A stretch of 62,358 nt of DNA, filler included. It is 7 parts of 7 records of this genome, joined end to end, with 100 filler letters (N's around TTAATTAATTAA, not from the genome) between each part and the next. Parts side by side here need not be neighbours in the genome. Positions count along the whole stretch, not along the records: positions 13,259 to 26,470 come from SRR20825010_8; 6 more parts are not named here. One strand, given 5' to 3'. This document shows, piece by piece, positions 13,312-22,044 of this stretch. Each line of letters begins with the position of its first letter. The first letter of the stretch is position 1. The notes under the pieces are model-generated. The model saw only the letters and a list, made by a program, of their open reading frames with translations, was not told the DNA's origin and made no database searches. Position numbers and translations under genes: made by a program.

Positions 13312-15555
13312 TTATGATTTGTTATAACTGGTGTAATACTCTTCCATCAAATTCATTAGTGCGGTGATAAGATCTTTGGTTTCCAGAAGCATACTAAAAT
13401 ACAACGTTGTATTCTTTGGGCTGGATTCCTCAGTTCGCGTACGGGCTATTTGTTTTTCAATTTTGTTGGAAAGACTTGCAAAAACTTCTTCTTTCTTATC
13501 GAGTACATTCTTGATGCGTTCAAATTCCTTTTTATGGAAAATATCATCTATATCATTTAAAAGCGCTTCCAGATACAAATCAATTTCTTGCAGATCTTTT
13601 ATTTGGTTAAAACGAAGTGCTTTATGGTTGTTGTTAACGTGCTTGTAACTTGCTTTCGAAATAAATTCTAACGACTGCACCACATCCGTTAAATAACCTA
13701 GAATTACGATATAGAAATTACTTCCGCTTACGCTTGTCTCGTCTAGGTTTTTGATGAAATAGAAGATATTGTCACGTAATTCTTCAACCTCATCATTCAA
13801 TTTTTTGACACCTTTTTTACTTTTCTTCAGTTTTTTAACGTCCTGTTTTGCAAGACCGCGAAGCATATCGGTGTATATTTTATTTGAACGAGAAACCACA
13901 TTGCTAATGTTTTCGGCACTTTCTTGAATAATTCCCTGTACCGTTTTGCTTTCGGTTTTCTTTAGTCCGCTTTTTTCTAACTTTAGCTTCACTTTATTTT
14001 TATGTGAAAGGTAATTACGAACTAAAAGTAAAATCGCTAACAATAAAAGGACAGCGATCATTGCGCCTTTTCCTATAAAGATTAAATAGGTTAAAGTTCC
14101 TGCTGCGGTAAAAGCTACAAATGCGGTAAAGAACCAGCCGCCAATTACGTTCAGCACACCAGCAACGCGGTATACTGCGCTTTCACGTCCCCAAGCTCTA
14201 TCTGCCAATGATGTACCCATTGCCACCATAAATGTTACGTAGGTGGTTGATAATGGAAGCTTCATGGATGTAGCGGTAGCAATCAAAACTCCAGCAACAA
14301 CAAGGTTTATGGAAGCGCGGATCATATCAAAAGCTGGTACTTCATAGCTTTTGTGTTTTGGCAACTCTATAACCGGCTTTTCAAAACGCTTGTCTATTTT
14401 TTGTTGCAGTGATTGTGGAACAATAAATTCTAGATACGTAGCAATTTGTGTTGAGCCCCTCACTAAAAATCTTGAAAGCATGTTTGGATTAAACTTTTCA
14501 TGGCCATCTCCTTGACGTGCCAAATCTATCTCTGTATCTGAAACGGTTCTTGCTTTTTTAGAAAACCATAAGGTTAGTACCATAACGCCACCTGCTATAA
14601 AGAGCAGTAAAGGTTCTGCGGGAACTTGTTTAGCCAAGCTGCTCATTCGAAACTCAGATGCCACTACTCCAGAGGCAGACCAATCTAAAAAGCTATGATA
14701 TGCGGCCATTGGCACTCCTATAAAGTTCACCAAATCGTTTCCGGCAAAAGCCAAGGCAAGGCTAAAAGTACCTACGGCAATAACAATGATAAGGATGTTC
14801 TTTTTGAAAATTACCATAAACAGCTGCGAAAAAACGGTCCAAAAAATTAGACTTCCTCCAATCATTACTAGAGAATAGCTTTCCATAATGCTGCTAAATT
14901 CTCCGTAAAAAGGTGTGCTTTTAAGCCCTTTCATAAAGATGAAATAACTTATAGCTGTAAGGGCGATCCCGCCAAAAATAGCGCCGAAGTATTTCATTTT
15001 CTTTTCAGACTGAAAAGTAAAAATAAGCCTGGAAAGGTATTGGACGACGGCACCAATCGTAAAGGCAATAATAACCGATGCAACAATACCTATTATAATT
15101 TCAACAGCTTTGTCTGTATTAATATATTTTGAAAGTGCCGAAAAAGTTTCGGCATCATTATGTCCTATTTTTATAAGTGCCATTATTACTGCTGCCCCCA
15201 AAAGTTCAAATACGATCGAAACCGTTGTAGAGGTTGGTAGGCCGATAGTATTAAAAAAATCGAGAAGTAAGATGTCTGTAATCATTACTGCCATGAAAAT
15301 AATCATGATTTCATCGAAATAAAATTCGCCAGGAACAAATATTCCCTTTCGGGCTACTTCCATCATTCCACTTGAAAAAACGGCTCCAATGAAAATCCCT
15401 AAGCTGGCAATTATAAGGATGGTTTTAAATGAAATTGCCTTAGAGCCAATTGCTGAATTAAGAAAATTTACAGCATCGTTACTTACTCCAACCACCAAAT
15501 CTGCAATGGCTAAAGCTGCAAGGGCAACGATCATTAATAAATAAATATTATCCAT
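13312..15555 (-). CDS. PiT/PHO4-family inorganic phosphate transporter with a C-terminal PhoU-like helical domain
   Basis: GVSNDAVN, PTSTT, GNDLVN and PLSTTY PiT signature repeats, then a soluble helical C-terminus. Confidence 0.88.
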   Translation of the reverse strand: MDNIYLLMIVALAALAIADLVVGVSNDAVNFLNSAIGSKAISFKTILIIASLGIFIGAVFSSGMMEVARKGIFVPGEFYFDEIMIIFMAVMITDILLLDFFNTIGLPTSTTVSIVFELLGAAVIMALIKIGHNDAETFSALSKYINTDKAVEIIIGIVASVIIAFTIGAVVQYLSRLIFTFQSEKKMKYFGAIFGGIALTAISYFIFMKGLKSTPFYGEFSSIMESYSLVMIGGSLIFWTVFSQLFMVIFKKNILIIVIAVGTFSLALAFAGNDLVNFIGVPMAAYHSFLDWSASGVVASEFRMSSLAKQVPAEPLLLFIAGGVMVLTLWFSKKARTVSDTEIDLARQGDGHEKFNPNMLSRFLVRGSTQIATYLEFIVPQSLQQKIDKRFEKPVIELPKHKSYEVPAFDMIRASINLVVAGVLIATATSMKLPLSTTYVTFMVAMGTSLADRAWGRESAVYRVAGVLNVIGGWFFTAFVAFTAAGTLTYLIFIGKGAMIAVLLLLAILLLVRNYLSHKNKVKLKLEKSGLKKTESKTVQGIIQESAENISNVVSRSNKIYTDMLRGLAKQDVKKLKKSKKGVKKLNDEVEELRDNIFYFIKNLDETSVSGSNFYIVILGYLTDVVQSLEFISKASYKHVNNNHKALRFNQIKDLQEIDLYLEALLNDIDDIFHKKEFERIKNVLDKKEEVFASLSNKIEKQIARTRTEESSPKNTTLYFSMLLETKDLITALMNLMEEYYTSYNKS

Positions 15556-15577
15556 TTTTTGTCTTATTAAACTGGTG

Positions 15578-15631
15578 CAAATTTCCCATATAAATTAGGA
15601 ATGATTGTTACCAAATTGTTAACTGTAATTA
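15578..15631 (-). promoter_or_regulatory. PiT promoter: degenerate -7 element plus 11-bp-period direct repeat (Pho-box-like)
   Basis: Minus strand TAACAAT-ttgg-TAACAAT (plus GTTA at 15607 and 15618). GAAATTTG element at 15578-15585. Confidence 0.65.
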
Positions 15632-15633
15632 CA

Positions 15634-16833
15634 CTAAAAATGCAGGTCGAAACCTATTCTAAACTCAATAGAATCACTTTCGCCACCCTGTGTTGAGTAT
15701 GATACATCTGTTTGTACTTTTAATTTATGGCCCACAATATATTTAGAGCCTCCCAGTGTAAATTGAGTAAGCGTATCGTTGGCCAAAAAATTGGTGTCGG
15801 GCAAGATACTGCTATATCTTGCTGCGATCTCCCAATTGGATCTAAACATATATCCTCCTTGAAAATTGAAACCCTGGCCTGTATACACCTCTTCTCCGGT
15901 AGAAGATCCATCACTATTTTTAGCAAGCGGATCTGCGGCATCGCGATAGCTATATTCGCCCATAACCGAAAAGCCATTATACTTAAACATCGCATCTACA
16001 AAAACAGTACTTATATTGGTTTCATGAAAACCTGTATCATTTTTCATGTAAGTGCCCATATTACTTCGGGTTTTTACAGCGTCTTGATTTAGGTCGAAGG
16101 TTGCGCCAATTGCCAGTTTAGGTTTTTTTTCACGATACACATCACCTCCAATATAATCGCCTTTTTTTGTAAATTCACCAAAAGGCAAAATTTCCACACG
16201 GCTTGTATATTGATTGCCGCCAAGGTTTCCTGTAATTACGTTTCTGCCTTCCCCTTGCGAAAAAGCCAGCATTTCACGGACCACTATTTTTTCTGAAATA
16301 GTAAAAAAATGGTGAAGCTGAAACCCTAGATCTCTATCTATATTAAAGTTTCTGTTGAGAATGGAGCGATCTATTAACTGAAGATTCCCTGAAGAAATGA
16401 CGCGTTCCCTGTTGCCGGGCAATTTTGTCTGGCCTGCCCAAAGCTCAAGGTTTTTATAGAATTCCCACATCACGACAGCATCATAAATTATTCTTGGAGC
16501 ATTTCCGGTAAACTCTGAAGCACCGTCAATATCTTGATTAGAAAGGCCAAGTTCAATTTTATACCGAAGCTTTGGGGAATATGCAAAGCCATTAAACTTA
16601 AGGCGTGCCCGCCGTATTAAAAAACTTTGTTCAGGTTTCCCAAATTTATCATTTTCATAGCCCCAATTTGAAAGGGCTCTAAACTGAATTCGTGGTGCAA
16701 ATTTTACACTCCAGGTGCTATCCTTGCCCACCACCTTGAGCATTCCTTCACCAAATTTTGGTGTAATGTCCTGAGAATGGGCAACGGTAATGCATAAAAA
16801 TGTAATACCTATAAGAAAATACTTAAAGGGCAT
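15634..16833 (-). CDS. Phosphate-selective porin (OprO/OprP-like)
   Basis: FLIRRARLKFNG, GQTKLPGNRERVISSG and a terminal aromatic F. The start is moved to ATG 16833 (MPFKY) because the GTG at 16860 abuts the promoter element. Confidence 0.8.
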   Translation of the reverse strand: MPFKYFLIGITFLCITVAHSQDITPKFGEGMLKVVGKDSTWSVKFAPRIQFRALSNWGYENDKFGKPEQSFLIRRARLKFNGFAYSPKLRYKIELGLSNQDIDGASEFTGNAPRIIYDAVVMWEFYKNLELWAGQTKLPGNRERVISSGNLQLIDRSILNRNFNIDRDLGFQLHHFFTISEKIVVREMLAFSQGEGRNVITGNLGGNQYTSRVEILPFGEFTKKGDYIGGDVYREKKPKLAIGATFDLNQDAVKTRSNMGTYMKNDTGFHETNISTVFVDAMFKYNGFSVMGEYSYRDAADPLAKNSDGSSTGEEVYTGQGFNFQGGYMFRSNWEIAARYSSILPDTNFLANDTLTQFTLGGSKYIVGHKLKVQTDVSYSTQGGESDSIEFRIGFDLHF

Positions 16834-16862
16834 TGGTAAATCGGTTTTAGTTTTTGTCACTG

Positions 16863-16906
16863 CAAAGGACTATTTTTAACATCAGCCCAATGTTATTTTA
16901 ATGTTA
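16863..16906 (-). promoter_or_regulatory. Porin promoter: degenerate -7 element plus Pho-box-like repeat
   Basis: Plus AATGTTA-tttt-AATGTTA (GTTA at 16892 and 16903). GTCCTTTG element at 16863-16870. Confidence 0.65.
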
Positions 16907-16936
16907 AGTTACAATAAATACTTTAGCTATAAAAAT

Positions 16937-17025
16937 AAAAAAAGGGCCGCTCAGATAAGAACAGCCCAGTTTAAAATCTAGTCGACAAAAACTAAACGAT
17001 TTTAAATTTCGCCTTTTTATAAGGC
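16937..17025 (-). ncRNA. Candidate ~90-nt small RNA with three hairpins and an intrinsic terminator
   Basis: TTTCTTTG element at 17031-17038. Hairpins GCCTT/AAGGC and TTTAAAATC..TAGT/ACTA-GATTTTAAA. Terminator GGGCTGTTC/GAGCGGCCC plus U7, whose G-U pairs work only on the minus strand. No ATG inside. Confidence 0.65.
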
Positions 17026-17146
17026 AGTTACAAAGAAAATAAACGTATGTGTTGTTAGGGTAAAATCTGCTTTATTAAATCATTAAATTATCTTTTTGGC
17101 TAAATAATTTAAATTTAAATATCTGTAAACCAATAAAATATAACTT

Positions 17147-17201
17147 TAATGTTATCATAATGTTACGAAATAGTTTCGTGAAAGTTAATTTTGTAACTTT
17201 G
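17147..17201. promoter_or_regulatory. 11-bp-period repeat TAATGTTA-tca-TAATGTTA next to the plus-strand promoter elements of the 120-aa gene
   Basis: GTTA at 17151 and 17162. TAATTTTG at 17186 and TAACTTTG at 17194. Confidence 0.55.
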
Positions 17202-17302
17202 AATATTCCAAAAAACAAATTCATATAAAATGCCCTTAAAAAATTATTAATAACAGAAGATGTGGAATTAGGGCGTTTCGTCTTCAAAAAAATACTATAA
17301 AA

Positions 17303-17665
17303 ATGAAAAATATAATCACAATTTTAGCTGTTGTTTTGATTTCCAGTGTTGCATTGGCTCAAAACAATTCAAAGAACACCTATTTCTTAGAGGGAGATGT
17401 AATTGAAGCTACCATTTATCATGAAAACGGTATGGTTGCTCAAACAGGGTATTATACTCAAGATAATAAATTAACTGGCGAATGGGCTAGTTTTGACGAA
17501 AATGGAAACAAGACTGCCGTTGCACATTATAATAATGGCGAAAAAGTAGGTACTTGGTACTTTTTCACAGGTAATAGTATTCAGGAAGTATCTTATATGG
17601 ATGCAAGAATTTCTAAAGTTAAAACCTGGAAGCCAAATAATACACAATTATTAGTTTCTAATTAA
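17303..17665 (+). CDS. Small secreted MORN-variant/YwqK-like repeat protein
   Basis: Signal peptide (ALA-Q) and repeats YHENG..AQTGYY, GEWASFDENG, GEKVGTWYFF. Confidence 0.75.
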   Translation: MKNIITILAVVLISSVALAQNNSKNTYFLEGDVIEATIYHENGMVAQTGYYTQDNKLTGEWASFDENGNKTAVAHYNNGEKVGTWYFFTGNSIQEVSYMDARISKVKTWKPNNTQLLVSN

Positions 17666-17681
17666 AATATATTTAAATAAG

Positions 17682-17719
17682 AAAGAGCCAGGCTATAAAG
17701 TATAGTCTGGCTCTTTTTT
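17682..17719. terminator. Bidirectional terminator
   Basis: AAAGAGCCAGGCTATA-AAG-TATAGTCTGGCTCTTTTTT between convergent genes. Confidence 0.85.
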
Positions 17720-17738
17720 ATTGTGACACTGTTTTATA

Positions 17739-20570
17739 CTAGAATTTTAAGCTATACCCTAAACTTATTTCTTGTCCGGGATGCCATTTAGAGTATATTT
17801 GATCCTCTGCACCAAATGATTGATACACACTTTCTATGTTATCATTAAATAGGTTATCAAATTTCAATGAAATTGTTGAGTTTTTATTTTCTCCAAAACT
17901 CTTAGCAATATTCAGTTTTATATTGTGAAAAGGTAACGTGTAAACATCTGCAACATCACCAGAACCTACAATTTGTAATGTTTTGCCTTGTGTATTGTAA
18001 AAAAGCCCAGCTTGGAGTCCAGATGTTTCTTCTTTATAGTTAAATCCTAGGTTTATAAGATATGGGCTTTGCCCTTGTAGTTGTCTTGTATCATCAAGAA
18101 TTTCCCCTTCCCGTAAATTGTCTAATCTACCTTCTCTTTCATCATCACTATATTCTTGTTGAGATTCTATTAGTGAAAAGTTAAGGTTAAAATCAATATC
18201 CTCTAATCCATTAATAAACCCTAAATTTTTTCTTATTTCAAGCTCGCCTCCAAATACTGTAGCATCTCCTAGGTTTAGTGGTGTGTATTGTCCGTATGCT
18301 CTTCTAATGAATGACAATTCAATAGGATCGTCAAACGATTTGTAAAATCCACTTAAAGCAAAGAAATCTCCAGCTTCTCCATATATTTCATATCTAATGT
18401 CGAAATTATCAACATACGTGGGCTGAAGATCTATATTTCCAATAAAGGTAGTGCTGCTTATTGGATCGAATATTTCTGCTAGTGAAGCCTCTTTAAAAGA
18501 AGGTCTTGCTGTTGTTCGTGAATATGAAGTTCGTATTTTTTTGTTTTTATCTTCATTTAAATCAAAAATAAGATTTGCTGAAGGAAAAAAGTCTGATTTC
18601 TCCAAGACTTTTGCGCCGTTCAATTCTGTACCATCCTGTCTTTCTCCTGTGTATATTAGATCAAATTTCTCAAATCTTACACCCAGGGCTGCATTTACCC
18701 AATTGGTAACTTTAAATTCTTCGGCTATATATGCTGCTCCTACGTGTATTTCAGAATTAAAAGAATCAGAATCGTTAGAGTCTTGTCTAATGTAGATCCC
18801 ACTATTTGTAGCTGGATTATAAATATTTGCATCAGTTAATAATTGATCGGGATCGCCACCAAGTACTGCTGATGAAAAATTAAGAAACGGCAATGAGTAT
18901 TTAATTACACCAAAATCTCTTTCTTTATAGGTGTATGCGCCGCCAATTTTAGCTTTAGCTTCAAAACCAAATAGATTGTGTTCTTTTTCAAGACCTACTT
19001 TTCCTGCGAGATTTAATTCCTCTAGCGATCTAAAGAAACGTGATGCATCACCAGATTCACTAGGTTCTATAGTATATACTTCTTCTCCTGTTGTTGGATT
19101 GATAGAAACTCTAAAAGGTGTTGAGCGAAAATCTTTATCATCAACACGCGCTAAAGAAGGCGAAAGGTTCCATTCCAGTTTCCAGTCGTTTTCACTTCCA
19201 AAAGAATGGGTTCCTTTTAATAAGGCATTTGTAATAGACTTTTGAACATATGTAAGGTTGTCCTTTTTTATGTTGTTACTACTTACAATAAAGTTTTCAA
19301 TATTAAAAATCCCAGCCTCAGATTCTCCGTTTTGGATATGAAGTACATTGAATTGATATTTTGATTTTTCAGTTTTAAAGGTTAATCCAGCCATCGCACT
19401 AACTAAAACGGAATTAGTTCCTAATTCACCATTTTGAGTACGATCTGCTAAAAGATTAAAATTTGATCGATCGGCTTCATCTTTTCTATATAACTGACCA
19501 TCGATATATTCTTCGTAATATTTTGTTTCATTTCTATAAGAGAGTGATGCTAAATAACCCAATTTATTTTCGCCTATTTCAAATTGATCCCCTGCCGTGA
19601 GGGCAAAATTGTAATTCATAAAGCTTTGCTCGCGTTCTGCTGCCATTTTAGGGTTAAAACGTTGGGTAAGTGTACGTACTTCTGCTCCGTCTTGTTGTGG
19701 TAGCGGAACCGTTTGGTTTTGAGAGAGAGGATTGTCTCTTAAACCATTGTCAAAGCCTAAAAAGTCGGTATTACTCTTATCACCTGTTAAATAATTTTTA
19801 TTGAAATGAAATTCTGAATTGTATCCCAAGCCCACAGATAGGCTATATTCAGCTCTACTTGGAATGTCTTTGGTAACAATATTTATAACCCCTCCTGTAA
19901 AATCTGCAGGCTGATCTGCAGTTGCAGATTTTGAAATTAATACATTTTCGAGAATTTGAGAAGGAAAAATATCTAGTTGTAACGTATTTCTATCTGGATC
20001 TAAACCTGGTACTTCCATGCCATTAAGGATAGATTTAGTGTAACGGTCTCCCAATCCCCGAACATATACATATTTTCCACCTTGCACAGAAACTCCTGGA
20101 ACATTTTGTACGGCTGCAGCTACATCGCTTGCCCCCGTTTTTTTTATGCTCTCTAAAGATAAACCATCCATTAAGGTTACCGAATTTTTTTGAAGATTAA
20201 GCACAGACGCTTCAGTGTTTCTGCGTGCTGTTGTGGTAACAACTACTTCATCTAATTGTCCAGCAGAAGCATTGAGGGTTACATCTAAATTTGTTGTTTG
20301 ATCGCCATTTACTATTACTTCAGAAATTTCTTTTGTTTGATACCCTACAAATGAAAAAATAAGGGTGTAGGTGCCTGCATCTAGTTTTAAATTGAATTTT
20401 CCATCAAAATCTGATGTAGTTCCGGTTTGTGTTCCTTTTACAACAATACTCGCAAAAGGCAAAACATCATTGTATTCGCCATCGTTAACGGTACCCGAAA
20501 CAACGCCTGACTGAGAAAATGTACATTGTACTATAAACATTGCGACAAGCAAAGGGAAAATATTTTTCAT
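17739..20570 (-). CDS. TonB-dependent receptor with an N-terminal carboxypeptidase-regulatory-like domain
   Basis: GTTSDFDGKF/SFVGY N-domain, LDEVVV TonB box region, plug YVYVRGLGDRY...GGVINIVTK, and terminal SLKF. Confidence 0.92.
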   Translation of the reverse strand: MKNIFPLLVAMFIVQCTFSQSGVVSGTVNDGEYNDVLPFASIVVKGTQTGTTSDFDGKFNLKLDAGTYTLIFSFVGYQTKEISEVIVNGDQTTNLDVTLNASAGQLDEVVVTTTARRNTEASVLNLQKNSVTLMDGLSLESIKKTGASDVAAAVQNVPGVSVQGGKYVYVRGLGDRYTKSILNGMEVPGLDPDRNTLQLDIFPSQILENVLISKSATADQPADFTGGVINIVTKDIPSRAEYSLSVGLGYNSEFHFNKNYLTGDKSNTDFLGFDNGLRDNPLSQNQTVPLPQQDGAEVRTLTQRFNPKMAAEREQSFMNYNFALTAGDQFEIGENKLGYLASLSYRNETKYYEEYIDGQLYRKDEADRSNFNLLADRTQNGELGTNSVLVSAMAGLTFKTEKSKYQFNVLHIQNGESEAGIFNIENFIVSSNNIKKDNLTYVQKSITNALLKGTHSFGSENDWKLEWNLSPSLARVDDKDFRSTPFRVSINPTTGEEVYTIEPSESGDASRFFRSLEELNLAGKVGLEKEHNLFGFEAKAKIGGAYTYKERDFGVIKYSLPFLNFSSAVLGGDPDQLLTDANIYNPATNSGIYIRQDSNDSDSFNSEIHVGAAYIAEEFKVTNWVNAALGVRFEKFDLIYTGERQDGTELNGAKVLEKSDFFPSANLIFDLNEDKNKKIRTSYSRTTARPSFKEASLAEIFDPISSTTFIGNIDLQPTYVDNFDIRYEIYGEAGDFFALSGFYKSFDDPIELSFIRRAYGQYTPLNLGDATVFGGELEIRKNLGFINGLEDIDFNLNFSLIESQQEYSDDEREGRLDNLREGEILDDTRQLQGQSPYLINLGFNYKEETSGLQAGLFYNTQGKTLQIVGSGDVADVYTLPFHNIKLNIAKSFGENKNSTISLKFDNLFNDNIESVYQSFGAEDQIYSKWHPGQEISLGYSLKF

Positions 20571-20588
20571 ACATTTATTTTTATAAAA

Positions 20589-20621
20589 TTTGCCCGTCCT
20601 TAAAAATTAAAGACGAGCAAA
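20589..20621 (-). other. Intercistronic stem-loop between the lipoprotein and TBDT genes
   Basis: Minus strand TTTGCTCGTCTTTAA-TTT-TTAAGGACGGGCAAA, with two G-U pairs valid only on the minus strand. Confidence 0.7.
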
Positions 20622-20665
20622 CTGCTAATTAATTAAAACGAAAAGTTTAATTTGAATACTATTAT

Positions 20666-21931
20666 TTAAAGTGCTCCTTTAGCTGCTGTGTAAGTCCAAG
20701 AGAAAACGGAAAGATCTGCTCCTCCAGATGTTCCAGAAGTAGCCCAAGTTGCTGCTCTTTCTGTAAATGTTGGATTAAGAATAATCAAATCTTCAAAAAC
20801 ATCGTTAGTTGGATCATTGTCACTGCAATTTGCAATACAAGCAACTTTTTCAGCAAAGATTGTGTTATCATCACCGTTTATAACCCAATTTTGAAAAGTT
20901 AATTTTCCATCCAAAAAGTTTTGTGATACACCATTGTTGTCTAGCTCCACATCAGAATCTGCTTTAAAACCTACTGCATAAATATTATTTAAGGCGCCCA
21001 TTGCGTTATCACGTAAATCTGCGTACTCGCCATTTTCTGTAGTAGTGTTACCAATTAAAGTAATGCCATTTAATGTAAATCCTGCTTCGTAAGAACCTGC
21101 TGGGCCGTCAATTTCCATTGCATGATCAGAGATGTTGCCTAAAATAGCAACTGAATTTGAAATGGTACCTGAGTACGCCTCATCAATATCTAGTGCATCA
21201 TCACCACAAGCCCAAACTAAAGCATTTGATACGTTTACGCTTCCGCCAAACCATTCTATACCATCGTCCAAATTACCTACAACCTCTACATTAGAAATAG
21301 ATGTTCCAGATCCAACAGCACCCAGAGTAAGGCCGTTAATTTCATTTCCATCTCCTAATAAAGTGCCTCCGTGGCGAATAGAAATATAATTAATAACACC
21401 AGAATTATCTGCGTCATCATTACCTCCGTAAAGTCCGTTAGTATCACTAGCAGGAATACCTTCAATTTGGTTTTCAGTAGCATCTCCAGAAAGTGAAGCT
21501 TTCGCTTTACCTAAAACTATTACACCACCCCATAGATTACGATCATTTTCTGTAAGATTTGTTCCAGCAGTTTCGCCTAAAGCAATATTATCTGTAATTG
21601 AAGTAAAAATGATAGGCTTGCTTGCAGTTCCATTAGCTTGAATTTTTGCACCTCTTGCAATAATAAGTACAGAAGCATTGGAGTTTTGTCCTGCAAACGC
21701 CTTTATTATCGTACCTTCGTTAATAGTTAACGTTGCACCAGCAGTTACTGTTACACGACCTTCAAGTTCCCAAATAACATCATTGGTCAATGTCATGTCT
21801 TCAGTAATTTGACCAGAAAGTCTATTTTCTACTGGATCTGGATCAACGATTGGTGCATCGTCATCACTACTGCAGCTAATGGTAGTGGAAAGGGCAGCTA
21901 AAGCTATAATTGATAAAAAGAATTTTTTCAT
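20666..21931 (-). CDS. Surface lipoprotein with a probable beta-helix fold, partner of the TBDT
   Basis: Start moved to MKKFFL (21931). Lipobox TTISC followed by acidic SSDDD. Repeated DDGIEWFGG, DDALDID and DHAMEIDG rungs. Confidence 0.8.
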   Translation of the reverse strand: MKKFFLSIIALAALSTTISCSSDDDAPIVDPDPVENRLSGQITEDMTLTNDVIWELEGRVTVTAGATLTINEGTIIKAFAGQNSNASVLIIARGAKIQANGTASKPIIFTSITDNIALGETAGTNLTENDRNLWGGVIVLGKAKASLSGDATENQIEGIPASDTNGLYGGNDDADNSGVINYISIRHGGTLLGDGNEINGLTLGAVGSGTSISNVEVVGNLDDGIEWFGGSVNVSNALVWACGDDALDIDEAYSGTISNSVAILGNISDHAMEIDGPAGSYEAGFTLNGITLIGNTTTENGEYADLRDNAMGALNNIYAVGFKADSDVELDNNGVSQNFLDGKLTFQNWVINGDDNTIFAEKVACIANCSDNDPTNDVFEDLIILNPTFTERAATWATSGTSGGADLSVFSWTYTAAKGAL

Positions 21932-21967
21932 TTTTTTACTGTTTTTTTTATTATTTAAATTATGCAG

Positions 21968-22044
21968 CAAAGAAATGGCTGTAGTGTAAAACTAAGGTTA
22001 CTGCTAGATTACTAATATGCAATTATAGTGTTACCTTAGTGTTA
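21968..22044 (-). promoter_or_regulatory. Lipoprotein-TBDT promoter with an extended 11-bp-period repeat array
   Basis: Plus cores GTTA 21997, ATTA 22008, GTTA 22030 and GTTA 22041. TTTCTTTG element at 21968-21975. Confidence 0.7.

Follow-up and report, generated by a model that had tools for sequence, protein, structure and literature searches.

We identified a putative small RNA (sRNA) gene on the minus strand, in tandem with and directly 5′ of a phosphate-selective porin gene, in the window (the whole stretch of DNA analysed here, 62,358 nucleotides in length), which comes from a marine flavobacterium. The reading that best accounts for our results, to which we assign a probability of roughly 0.68, is that this locus encodes an independently transcribed base-pairing sRNA of ~89 nt that is conserved in the Flavobacteriaceae and lowers porin output. 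The comparisons laid out below establish the anatomy of the predicted gene, its predicted RNA structure, and a conserved, co-varying complementarity to the start of the porin message; they also bear on several alternative interpretations of the same DNA.

Positions 16938–17026 of the minus strand have the sequence features of an sRNA gene, whose transcription and exact ends we infer, the 3′ end from a U tract and the 5′ end from a -7 box rule. The start was set 5 nt past the G of the TTTG element, following the sigma-A box position of -12 to -5 mapped in F. psychrophilum (PMC9723704). The proximal -7 box, TTTCTTTG (17031–17038), carries this TTTG and lies 5 nt before a 5′ hairpin (UGCCUU AUAAA AAGGCG, 17010–17026, from the MFE fold). 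A central hairpin follows (16970–17006), composed of an outer stem, a GUU bulge, an inner stem UAGUU/GACUA, and the apical loop UUUGUC (16984–16989); the seed region AAAUCGUUUAGUUUUUGUCG (16983–17002), which is complementary to the porin leader, falls within this hairpin and has half of its length base-paired there. The unit ends in an intrinsic terminator (16937–16967) with a 9-bp stem, including six G-C pairs, followed by U7. This was the sole terminator-like site in the region searched (15400–17800), and its U tract is strand-specific, being present on the minus strand only. The 116-nt stretch containing the unit folds with -30.6 kcal/mol, compared to -17.3 ± 2.8 for shuffled sequences (n = 200; z = -4.7), none of which folded as well. 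The terminator is not needed by any protein gene, as the upstream minus-strand gene ends at 17739 and has its own hairpin (17676–17722), and the gene at 17303–17665 lies on the strand opposite to the unit. A preliminary description of this DNA had proposed a minus-strand unit comprising a TTTG element, a 5′ hairpin, a central hairpin, and a strand-specific terminator that no protein gene requires, and each of these elements was recovered where described, with the TTTG at 17034–17031.

The promoter of the porin gene (16863–16906, minus strand) consists of Pho-box-like half-sites (16890–16906) and the -7 box GTCCTTTG (16863–16870). We use the label “Pho box” for the flavobacterial repeats by analogy with the E. 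coli box; no flavobacterial Pho box was identified among the papers that a literature search listed. The -37 position marks the start of a half-site in most sources (46 of 49), the -26 position in 29, and the -48 position in 20, and a TTTG or TTTA occurs at most 11 nt 5′ of the target core in all 49. With its 11-bp spacing and near-constant -37 site, the porin promoter clearly shows a PhoB-type pattern, and TAACAT-type half-sites starting at -48, -37, and -26 are a likely geometry for the flavobacterial Pho box. Upstream of the sRNA, conserved promoter elements are found at 17058–17087 (minus strand; TTAAT at about -60, TAATA at about -48, and TTTAC at about -37). Across 42 distinct sRNA promoters, TAA[TC] is present at -59 to -56 in 39 and [TAC]AC at -36 to -34 in 35, the latter in the same register as the -37 half-site of the porin promoter (itself present in 47 of 48). 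The -26 site of the sRNA promoter is weak (ACAT in 11/42), and its TTAAT and TAATA elements differ at -60 and -48. Its box consensus, TTTcTTTGTAa, is similar to that of the porin, tcTTTGCAg.

Of 49 sources, 44 have a TTTG 15–64 nt 5′ of the seed; the five without it are Maribacter/Zobellia-type loci (L049, L055, L058, L069, and L070), so the 5′ end of the sRNA may differ by genus. Further upstream, three TAACAT-type half-sites at 11-bp spacing form distal Pho-box-like direct repeats (17138–17165, minus strand). A box on the same strand is found 161–195 nt 5′ of the seed in 42 of the 49 loci with at least 300 nt of upstream sequence, which places this full box ~130 nt further 5′ than the sRNA promoter; it could serve as an alternative start and give rise to a longer isoform of ~185 nt. 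We also considered whether the spacer encodes a small protein instead of an RNA, and found this unsupported: the sole spacer ORF of at least 50 aa (17075–17287; 70 aa, TTG start) has no Pfam match, the distal Pho box falls inside it, and its tblastn matches, in close Aequorivita-type loci, cover mainly residues 24–70, DNA that contains conserved promoter elements. Another Pho-box operon in the window (17739–21970), encoding a TonB-dependent receptor and a 434-aa protein, has a leader that differs from that of the porin.

To survey related loci we used the best 80 of 589 relatives of the PiT transporter, which correspond to 77 distinct loci and, together with the window, to 78 sources. Fifty-four of these sources (53 of the 77 related Flavobacteriaceae loci plus the window) carry both the sRNA unit and the site complementary to it, and in all 54 the unit lies directly 5′ of the phosphate-selective porin gene. 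Carriers include Aequorivita, Ulvibacter, Altibacter, Cochleicola, Galbibacter, Zhouia, Olleya, Flaviramulus, Lacinutrix, Psychroserpens, Winogradskyella, Maribacter, Zobellia, and a MAG labelled Zunongwangia. A covariance model built from 22 Aequorivita copies had a single match in the window (16937–17030, E = 4e-21) and recovered 51 of the 53 loci at E < 0.01, with L041 at E = 0.095; it revealed no extra copies in the 62-kb window or in any locus. Searches of Rfam 15, GibS/FopS and Flavo-type motifs included, with positions 15000–18500 returned sbrA as the best match on the unit, over the terminator only and with 23.4 bits where the gathering score is 45, and the copies from L069 and L057 had no match above gathering score. 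The RNA is unannotated, as had been claimed.

Compensatory changes in these copies support a conserved RNA structure. In the covariance-model alignment, 97.1% of cells are paired compared to 84.0% in shuffles, with none of 500 shuffles attaining the observed value, and sliding the partners by 1–3 columns reduces pairing to 29–57% of cells. Double-sided changes are seen in 17 of 23 base pairs, including eight of the nine pairs in the outer stem of the central hairpin and all nine in the terminator stem (98.9% of cells paired in 43 aligned homologues); the inner stem is invariant, and the seed core AGTTTTTGTCGACT shows little or no variation among 49 aligned copies. This alignment was fitted to the covariance model; independent MFE folds agree with it. 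Among 47 distinct copies, these predicted the 5′ hairpin in 40, with a sequence that differs between homologues, the UUUGUC loop in 44, closed by U-G, and the terminator in 40. A sequence-only approach (MAFFT and RNAalifold, 49 copies) recovered just two elements, the terminator and the inner stem, since sequence alone could not align the highly divergent outer stems, a problem that the covariance-model alignment and the independent folds overcame. Covariation across the Flavobacteriaceae had been put forward earlier as a check on the proposal of an independent, unannotated minus-strand sRNA, and the unit is indeed conserved with covariation over many genera.

The predicted target is the adjacent Porin_O_P gene (15634–16833, minus strand; Pfam PF07396, E = 6.5e-12). 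Its target site, (U)GACAAAAACUAAAACCGAUUU (16838–16859, minus strand), would make up the first ~21 nt of the porin mRNA: the -7 box rule places the transcription start at about 16858, the G of GACAAAAAC, and the ATG is at 16833. In F. psychrophilum, the mapped start of oprP is 21 nt 5′ of the ATG (PMC9723704 supplement). Thirteen contiguous pairs join 16846–16858 to 16984–16996, and six more follow past a 2-nt bulge, exactly as the preliminary description had claimed. RNAduplex gives -23.5 kcal/mol for the window pair, compared to -7.0 ± 2.4 (best -17.5) for 1000 shuffled sRNAs. When up to two mismatches were allowed, the 13-mer CGACAAAAACTAA was found at just the seed and leader sites in the whole 62-kb window, which thus has no other such site that would point to further targets.

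This complementarity is retained in orthologous loci, as had been anticipated for a genuine base-pairing RNA. The invariant core UUAGUUUUUGUCG pairs with CGACAAAAACUAA, which lies immediately 3′ of the porin -7 box and would form the 5′ end of the mRNA; the full CGACAAAAACTAA occupies this position in 49/49 pairs. Of 54 sources, 33 have a perfectly Watson-Crick 13-bp core, and the number with a fully paired core rises to 40 when G-U pairs are included. A compensatory change (UAAG with CUUA) is present in L026 and L028, and a position flanking the core is T:A in 28/49 and A:T in 13/49. Cognate pairs had a mean duplex energy of -23.6 kcal/mol, compared to -20.6 when non-cognate partners were combined, and none of 10,000 permutations reached the cognate mean, although this result is inflated because related genomes are not independent. 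As the core is invariant, the evidence for co-variation of the pairing rests on the flanks and a few lineages. The pairing is extended in a clade-specific manner, by AAAUCG with CGAUUU in the Aequorivita clade and by UUUCAU with AUGAAA at the start codon in Maribacter/Zobellia/Olleya types. Seven loci (L035, L037, L039, L050, L059, L074, and L076) keep the porin leader motif without an adjacent sRNA, which indicates that conservation of the leader is independent of a neighbouring copy.

The preliminary description had also named the gene for a PiT-type phosphate transporter (13312–15555, minus strand; PHO4 domain, Pfam PF01384) as a second target. The octamer GACAAAAA is present immediately before the PiT ATG (15556–15563) as described, but it occurs seven times in the window where 6.4 occurrences are expected, i.e., at chance level, and it is found at most 30 nt 5′ of the PiT ATG in just 2 of 64 related loci; we therefore rejected PiT as a target. 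The PiT gene has its own Pho-box-like site (15605–15621), and its leader differs from that of the porin. A better second target is probably pstS: the window itself lacks this gene, and in 5/5 loci that have it the pstS leader starts with GCAAAAACUAA directly after its own -7 box, at a distance from the sRNA. The 970 kb of loci contain 125 occurrences of CAAAAACTA[AT], of which 51 are the complement of the seed and 48 sit directly 3′ of a -7 box and ahead of an ATG, 99 in total.

The preferred explanation for these observations is that pairing is nucleated where the loop UUUGUC, with the 5′ arm of the central hairpin next to it, meets the very first nucleotides of the porin mRNA (+1 GACAAAAACUAA...), and that it then zips along the whole A-rich leader of ~25 nt, which lacks a Shine-Dalgarno sequence, and would reach the AUG itself in several genera. 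Occlusion of the translation initiation region would lead to less porin synthesis and probably to lower mRNA stability. The sRNA probably acts in trans on several transport mRNAs of the Pho regulon, given that the pstS leader opens with the same motif in species that carry pstS. It is also probably phosphate-responsive, as its promoter carries Pho-box-like elements, and would then act as a feed-forward brake on porin and PstS output. In this scheme, the direction of the effect (repression) and the regulator are what we infer from the sequences; pairing to the extreme 5′ end of an mRNA can also stabilise it.

One may postulate that the same RNA and the same pairing raise expression under phosphate limitation, either by covering the 5′ ends of the porin and pstS mRNAs against 5′-end-dependent decay or by remodelling the leader. 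FasX is an sRNA that stabilises the ska message by pairing at its extreme 5′ end, so such an effect is known in other bacteria; here, pairing begins at the predicted +1, and the shared -37 register of the sRNA and porin promoters, together with the conserved distal Pho box, would fit co-induction in a coherent loop. We consider a positive effect unlikely, however, since the duplex spans nearly the whole 25-nt leader, including the AUG in Maribacter/Zobellia/Olleya types, and initiation on a leader without a Shine-Dalgarno sequence should be blocked by it; moreover, the precedents from this phylum, FopS and GibS, are repressors (PMC11697453). The preliminary description had raised a different alternative, in which read-through would turn the unit into a cis-acting leader switch. 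In such an attenuator, transcription from the upstream promoter would continue past the terminator, and the seed would pair with the porin initiation region in the same long mRNA as a switch or silencer. A 246-nt read-through RNA does fold with a long-range helix between seed and leader that encloses the terminator (-60.2 kcal/mol, z = -4.65), and wherever both are found, seed and target are adjacent and co-oriented. This reading is disfavoured by the presence, in 49/49 pairs examined, of a full porin promoter (half-sites at -48/-37/-26 and a -7 box) between the terminator and the target site, so that the main porin mRNA would begin with the motif and lack the sRNA. The terminator is also strong (9 bp, U7), and its arms are free to vary between genera while the upstream hairpin is invariant, so that a conserved antiterminator pairing is impossible; seed and target lie 112 to 250 nt apart, depending on the locus, and pstS leaders carry the motif away from the sRNA. 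A leader switch is accordingly quite improbable, and with the internal promoter and no conserved antiterminator we did not assign the unit to the transcription attenuators or riboswitch leaders.

It is also conceivable that the complementarity belongs to the DNA and that its appearance in RNA is a by-product, with the 13-bp arms acting as operators for a regulator, possibly by looping the porin promoter, or as sites at which recombination inverts the promoter. The porin promoter does lie between the arms of a perfect or near-perfect 13-bp inverted repeat, the downstream arm lies over the predicted transcription start as is typical of repressor sites, and duplex energies are similar for the two strands (sense -23.60 and opposite -23.17, sense better in 30/46), which makes energy a weak test of strand. 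The balance of G-U and A-C mismatches is more informative: among non-Watson-Crick cells of the core there are 13 G-U and two A-C, a count that omits one mis-picked site and three 1-nt insertions. In L044, UUGG faces CUGG with three wobbles, and L013 has two; in both, the DNA repeat is broken and pairing is kept only by virtue of the G-U wobbles. In addition, the complementarity runs past the core with bulges and clade-specific sequence, the spacing lacks helical phasing (112, 122–154, 165, 194, and 236–250 nt among the recorded values), and the upstream arm sits inside a hairpin with covarying stems that is followed by a strand-specific terminator. The terminator, Pho box, -7 box, and target are co-oriented in 54/54 sources and no flipped copy was seen; with a single orientation throughout and a repeat broken in L044 and L013, an invertible promoter (inverton) was rejected. 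The co-varying flanks, and the reliance of some genomes on G-U wobbles to keep the pairing, favour RNA–RNA pairing, and we give a DNA-level repeat very little credence.

Taking the repressing sRNA as the preferred interpretation, we tentatively put forward a broader possibility, about which we remain more doubtful than confident: that the Pho regulon has here a branch dedicated to post-transcriptional control, the first of its kind in Bacteroidota, in which a PhoB-driven sRNA conserved across Flavobacteriaceae genera would read a shared ‘+1 GNCAAAAACUAA’ tag at the extreme 5′ end of porin and pstS mRNAs through a hairpin-loop seed, with no need for Hfq or ProQ. The resulting incoherent feed-forward loop would limit, or set the timing of, outer-membrane porin and PstS output when marine flavobacteria are starved of phosphate. 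As the tag starts at +1, ribosome access and 5′-end-dependent decay could both be controlled by one pairing event. Flavobacteriaceae are among the major degraders of marine organic matter and are often phosphate-limited. Very few of their sRNAs have an assigned function, and their phylum lacks Hfq and ProQ. A candidate sRNA family that is single-copy and whose target site on a phosphate porin mRNA, and probably on pstS as well, is unambiguous and co-varies would offer an entry point both to base-pairing regulation on leaders without a Shine-Dalgarno sequence and to the post-transcriptional shaping of the Pho response in these bacteria. The family is not in Rfam, and an alignment and covariance model for it are now in hand and ready for use; our literature searches, which included the motif string, found no published description of this RNA.

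Several known systems share some of these features. Attenuators and riboswitch leaders resemble the unit in placing a structured RNA and an intrinsic terminator directly 5′ of a co-oriented regulated gene, but here the porin has its own promoter 3′ of the terminator, and no Rfam cis-regulatory family matches. Functional parallels are the enterobacterial MicF/ompF, MicC/ompC, and MicA/ompA pairs, trans-encoded antisense RNAs of ~90–110 nt that pair imperfectly with the porin leader and start region, prevent the ribosome from binding, and belong to the envelope or nutrient regulons that also drive their targets. The size and the pairing with a porin leader are alike; the sequences are unrelated, the Mic RNAs depend on Hfq and on a Shine-Dalgarno sequence, and micF is divergent from ompC and not in tandem with its target. 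For the phosphate porin PhoE, we know of no such sRNA.

Within the Flavobacteriaceae, the F. psychrophilum sRNAs Rfp11, Rfp13, Rfp15, and Rfp18 were identified from TSS mapping, and Rfp18, like the RNA described here, has a stem-loop as its pairing region (PMC9723704). In the same work, F. psychrophilum oprP lies directly after phoR with a leader that lacks the motif, and the sole feature of the phoR-oprP interval in the supplement rows retrieved is a segment filed under ‘putative artefacts’; this species therefore appears to lack the sRNA at that locus. FopS and GibS are intergenic sRNAs of Bacteroides thetaiotaomicron, with a sigma-A-type promoter and a Rho-independent terminator, in a phylum without Hfq and ProQ, and PMC11697453 describes repression of translation in vitro by FopS-10 and deposition of the FopS consensus structure in Rfam. 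The porin-linked sRNA shares this genetic setting and general architecture, but it has no match to FopS or GibS in sequence or structure. FopS uses a single-stranded 5′ end as its seed, is present in 14 copies per genome, and targets SusC-type PUL transporters, whereas the porin-linked sRNA would pair through a hairpin loop and arm, is present once in 62 kb with no additional copy in the loci, is predicted to target a phosphate porin and pstS, and is encoded in tandem, directly 5′ of its target.

The window derives from an Aequorivita-like flavobacterium whose 747-aa PiT transporter (PHO4; 13312-15555, minus strand) is 85-90% identical to that of many Aequorivita genomes. This PiT is unusually long, with its best PHO4 stretch, one of two, at residues 26-328, and its length and sequence are conserved in 77/77 related loci. 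Upstream lie a phosphate-selective porin gene (Porin_O_P, Pfam E=6.5e-12; 15634-16833, minus strand, ATG at 16833), a small divergent MORN-repeat gene (17303-17665, plus strand), and an operon of a 434-aa protein and a TonB-dependent receptor (17739-21970, minus strand). Between the convergent MORN and TonB-dependent receptor genes, a 22-nt inverted repeat (17676-17722, 91% complementary, A/T runs on both sides) is likely a bidirectional terminator. The 470-nt spacer between the porin and MORN-repeat genes holds the sRNA unit, and every element proposed for it in the preliminary description was found on the minus strand: a TTTG (17034-17031), a 5' hairpin (17026-17010), a central hairpin with apical loop UUUGUC (17006-16970), and an intrinsic terminator with a 9-bp stem (six G-C pairs) and U7 (16967-16937). 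This terminator is the sole such site across 15400-17800, and, as had been proposed, no coding gene requires it. The minimum free energy fold of the 116-nt stretch (-30.6 kcal/mol) contains the same three hairpins (z=-4.7; 0/200 shuffles as good), and the window copy matched no Rfam 15 family.

We compared the unit across 77 distinct loci recovered from the best 80 of 589 PiT relatives. In blastn searches the central part of the sRNA candidate was matched in many genera, as was its reverse complement ~140 nt downstream, and tolerant patterns found the seed (the part of the central hairpin complementary to the porin leader) together with its target in 53/77 loci plus the window. A covariance model built on 22 Aequorivita copies identified a single window copy (E=4e-21), 51 loci at E<0.01 and one further at E=0.095; it found no second copy in the window or any of the 77 loci. 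Carriers span Aequorivita, Ulvibacter, Altibacter, Cochleicola, Galbibacter, Zhouia, Olleya, Flaviramulus, Lacinutrix, Psychroserpens, Winogradskyella, Maribacter and Zobellia, and AGTTTTTGTCGACT is invariant or almost so across 49 aligned copies. A second, partial seed-like stretch, AAUUAGU(A/U)UUUC, lies ~20 nt upstream of the main seed in Olleya, Flaviramulus, Psychroserpens and Winogradskyella copies (L047, L053, L057, L058, L067, L071, L077) and is additionally built into an extended outer stem there.

Folded independently, 47 distinct copies produced the 5' hairpin in 40/47, the UUUGUC loop closed by U-G in 44/47 and the terminator in 40/47. In a model-guided alignment of 43 copies, which is fitted to the structure and thus biased, 97.1% of paired cells were complementary compared to 84.0% in column shuffles, with 0/500 shuffles reaching the observed value, and 17/23 pairs had double-sided changes; when the partners were shifted by 1-3 columns, pairing fell to 29-57%. 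Covarying pairs made up 8/9 of the central-hairpin outer stem and 9/9 of the terminator, while the inner stem UAGUU/GACUA was without any variation. Outer-stem sequences differ visibly (AAAAUC/GAUUUU, GAUUUCA/UGAAAUC, CAUAUAAU/AUUAUUAUG), which, together with the independent folds, argues that the result is not an artefact of the fitted alignment; the U tract and many G-U pairs fix the strand. The proposed unannotated sRNA represents a genuine, well-conserved and previously undescribed family of predicted sRNAs; a literature search that included the motif string returned no description of it.

The complementarity to the porin leader (16838-16859) held as described, with 13 contiguous pairs followed by six after a 2-nt bulge, and the duplex is predicted at -23.5 kcal/mol compared to -7.0 +/- 2.4 for 1000 shuffled sRNAs. 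Allowing <=2 mismatches, the 13-mer occurs at those two sites only in the whole window. A 17-nt inverted repeat (16818-16834 / 17229-17245, 82% complementary) also links the first porin codons (ATGCCCTTTAAG...) with a spacer site near the MORN gene, possibly by chance. The CGACAAAAACTAA target motif is always directly 3' of a -7 box (TTTGCAG-CGACAAAAACTAA); TTTG or TTTA lies <=11 nt upstream of the target in 49/49 pairs, and exact TTTG in 43/49. TAACAT-type half-sites start at -48 (20/49), -37 (46/49) and -26 (29/49) of the porin promoter, an 11-bp-phased array akin to the E. coli Pho box. Flavobacterium psychrophilum is the only family member for which we found a TSS atlas; this atlas places a sigma-A box TAnnTTTG at -12 to -5 and maps the oprP TSS, preceded by a comparable promoter, to 21 nt 5' of the ATG (PMC9723704). 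Under this box rule the window porin mRNA would start at ~16858, the G of GACAAAAAC, which would put the motif at the very 5' end of a leader 25 nt long.

The 13-bp core is perfectly Watson-Crick in 33/54 sources (loci plus the window) and fully paired counting wobble in 40/54. Leaving out L045 (a mis-picked site) and three loci whose target carries one inserted A, core cells that are not Watson-Crick comprise 13 G-U and two A-C. Both sides have changed in L026 and L028 (UAAG with CUUA), and a flanking position (n=49) reads T:A in 28, A:T in 13, A:A in six, T:G in one and A:G in one. L044 pairs UUGG with CUGG via three wobbles and L013 has two, so that the DNA repeat is destroyed and the RNA pairing kept. 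Pairing beyond the core is clade-specific yet complementary: in the Aequorivita clade AAAUCG pairs with CGAUUU immediately ahead of the AUG, and in Maribacter, Zobellia, Olleya, Flaviramulus and Zhouia types UUUCAU pairs with AUGAAA, which includes the start codon. Cognate duplexes averaged -23.6 kcal/mol compared to -20.6 for non-cognate ones (0/10000 permutations), a figure inflated by genome relatedness; a crude comparison of sense- and opposite-strand duplexes was weakly favourable (-23.60 vs -23.17, sense better in 30/46). The phosphate-porin leader is a convincing predicted primary target.

An sRNA without the leader motif was never seen among the loci compared. The motif (TTTGCAnnGACAAAAACT) occurs without an upstream sRNA in seven loci with other genes directly upstream (L035, which has only 233 nt of upstream sequence, L037, L039, L050, L059, L074 and L076); in these genomes the sRNA may be encoded elsewhere or have been recently lost. 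Four loci (L043, L051, L063, L072) have a porin and lack both sRNA and motif. Behind the common sRNA and leader sits one or the other of two strongly dissimilar Porin_O_P proteins: tblastn with the window porin gave no match in 23/77 loci, several of which retain sRNA and leader, and a highly diverged type lies downstream in a subset of Aequorivita-type loci (L006, 4696-5925, Pfam E=9e-53, compared to 6.5e-12 for the window porin). It looks as if the porin gene was replaced while the regulatory cassette stayed.

PiT, also put forward as a target, was rejected: GACAAAAA occurs seven times in the window with 6.4 expected, only 2/64 loci have it in the 30 nt preceding the PiT ATG, and PiT has its own Pho-box-like site (15605-15621) and TTTGCA box. 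A plausible second target, better than PiT, is pstS. The window has no pstS. A pstSCAB-phoU operon sits between porin and PiT in L003, L004, L031, L034 and L035, and in all five of these loci with a pstS homologue the pstS leader starts GCAAAAACUAA directly after its own Pho-box/-7 promoter; in L003 (1560-1640) its predicted duplex with the seed has 12 Watson-Crick pairs and one wobble. CAAAAACTA[AT] occurs 125 times in the 970 kb of loci, and 99 of these sites are either the seed complement (51) or sit immediately 3' of a -7 box and ahead of an ATG (48).

The predicted sRNA promoter of the window has a TTTG placed 5 nt ahead of the 5' hairpin; a TTTG is present in 44/49 sources, the exceptions being five Maribacter/Zobellia-type loci. 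Over 42 distinct sequences the promoter consensus reads TTAATgATTTg.TAAta.TA..tTTACa..aAa...Acatt...atTTTcTTTGTAa, with a -37 half-site register in common with the porin promoter ([TAC]AC at -36..-34 in 35/42, porin 47/48), a weak -26 site (ACAT in 11/42), and distinct TTAAT/TAATA elements at -60 and -48. In 42/49 loci with enough sequence, a complete Pho-box-like repeat on the same strand is positioned 161-195 nt 5' of the seed (window 17138-17165, minus strand); the TTGATTTTCAG-like element after it could act as an additional, weaker promoter for a ~185-nt isoform. From these promoter elements and the distal repeat, the sRNA is probably phosphate-responsive. On the minus strand, TAACAT-type direct repeats with 11-bp spacing stand upstream of PiT (15605-15621), the porin (16890-16906), the sRNA (17138-17165) and the 434-aa/TonB operon (22028-22044), apparently making up a cluster of Pho-regulon promoters within the window. 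The sRNA promoter region is overlapped by a 70-aa, TTG-initiated ORF (17075-17287, minus strand) that had no Pfam match. In close relatives its tblastn matches fall mainly within residues 24-70, where the underlying promoter DNA is conserved, and this ORF probably does not represent a gene.

The simplest interpretation is an antisense sRNA that acts in trans on the porin leader. The loop and 5' arm would bind the start of the porin mRNA, and likewise of pstS mRNA where present; pairing would then extend along the entire A-rich leader, which lacks a Shine-Dalgarno sequence, as far as the AUG or across it, and block translation initiation. If co-induced with its targets, the sRNA would act as an incoherent feed-forward brake. 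The opposite outcome, activation through 5'-end protection of the mRNA, seems improbable.

Read-through into the porin gene, which the preliminary description offered as making the unit a cis-acting leader switch, is disfavoured: a promoter intervenes before the porin, the terminator is strong and its arms vary freely beside an invariant hairpin, the seed-target spacing varies from 112 to 250 nt, and the pstS sites are distant. The repeated seed and target might instead constitute a DNA operator or inverton, but this too is disfavoured, as their orientation is constant (54/54), the spacing is unphased, the extensions are bulged and clade-specific, and wobble-only copies exist.

For work on RNA in Bacteroidota, and on phosphorus physiology in the sea, this sRNA family is of solid interest. 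In F. psychrophilum, oprP lies directly 3' of phoR and lacks the motif, and among the supplement rows listed the phoR-oprP interval contains only a segment filed as 'putative artefacts' (PMC9723704). Mechanistically closest are the Bacteroides sRNAs FopS and GibS. The enterobacterial porin regulators MicF, MicC and MicA are close as well. The present sRNA, which matches no Rfam family, falls outside both groups: it has its seed in a hairpin loop and not at a free 5' end, a single copy, phosphate-related predicted targets, and a tandem arrangement with its own target.
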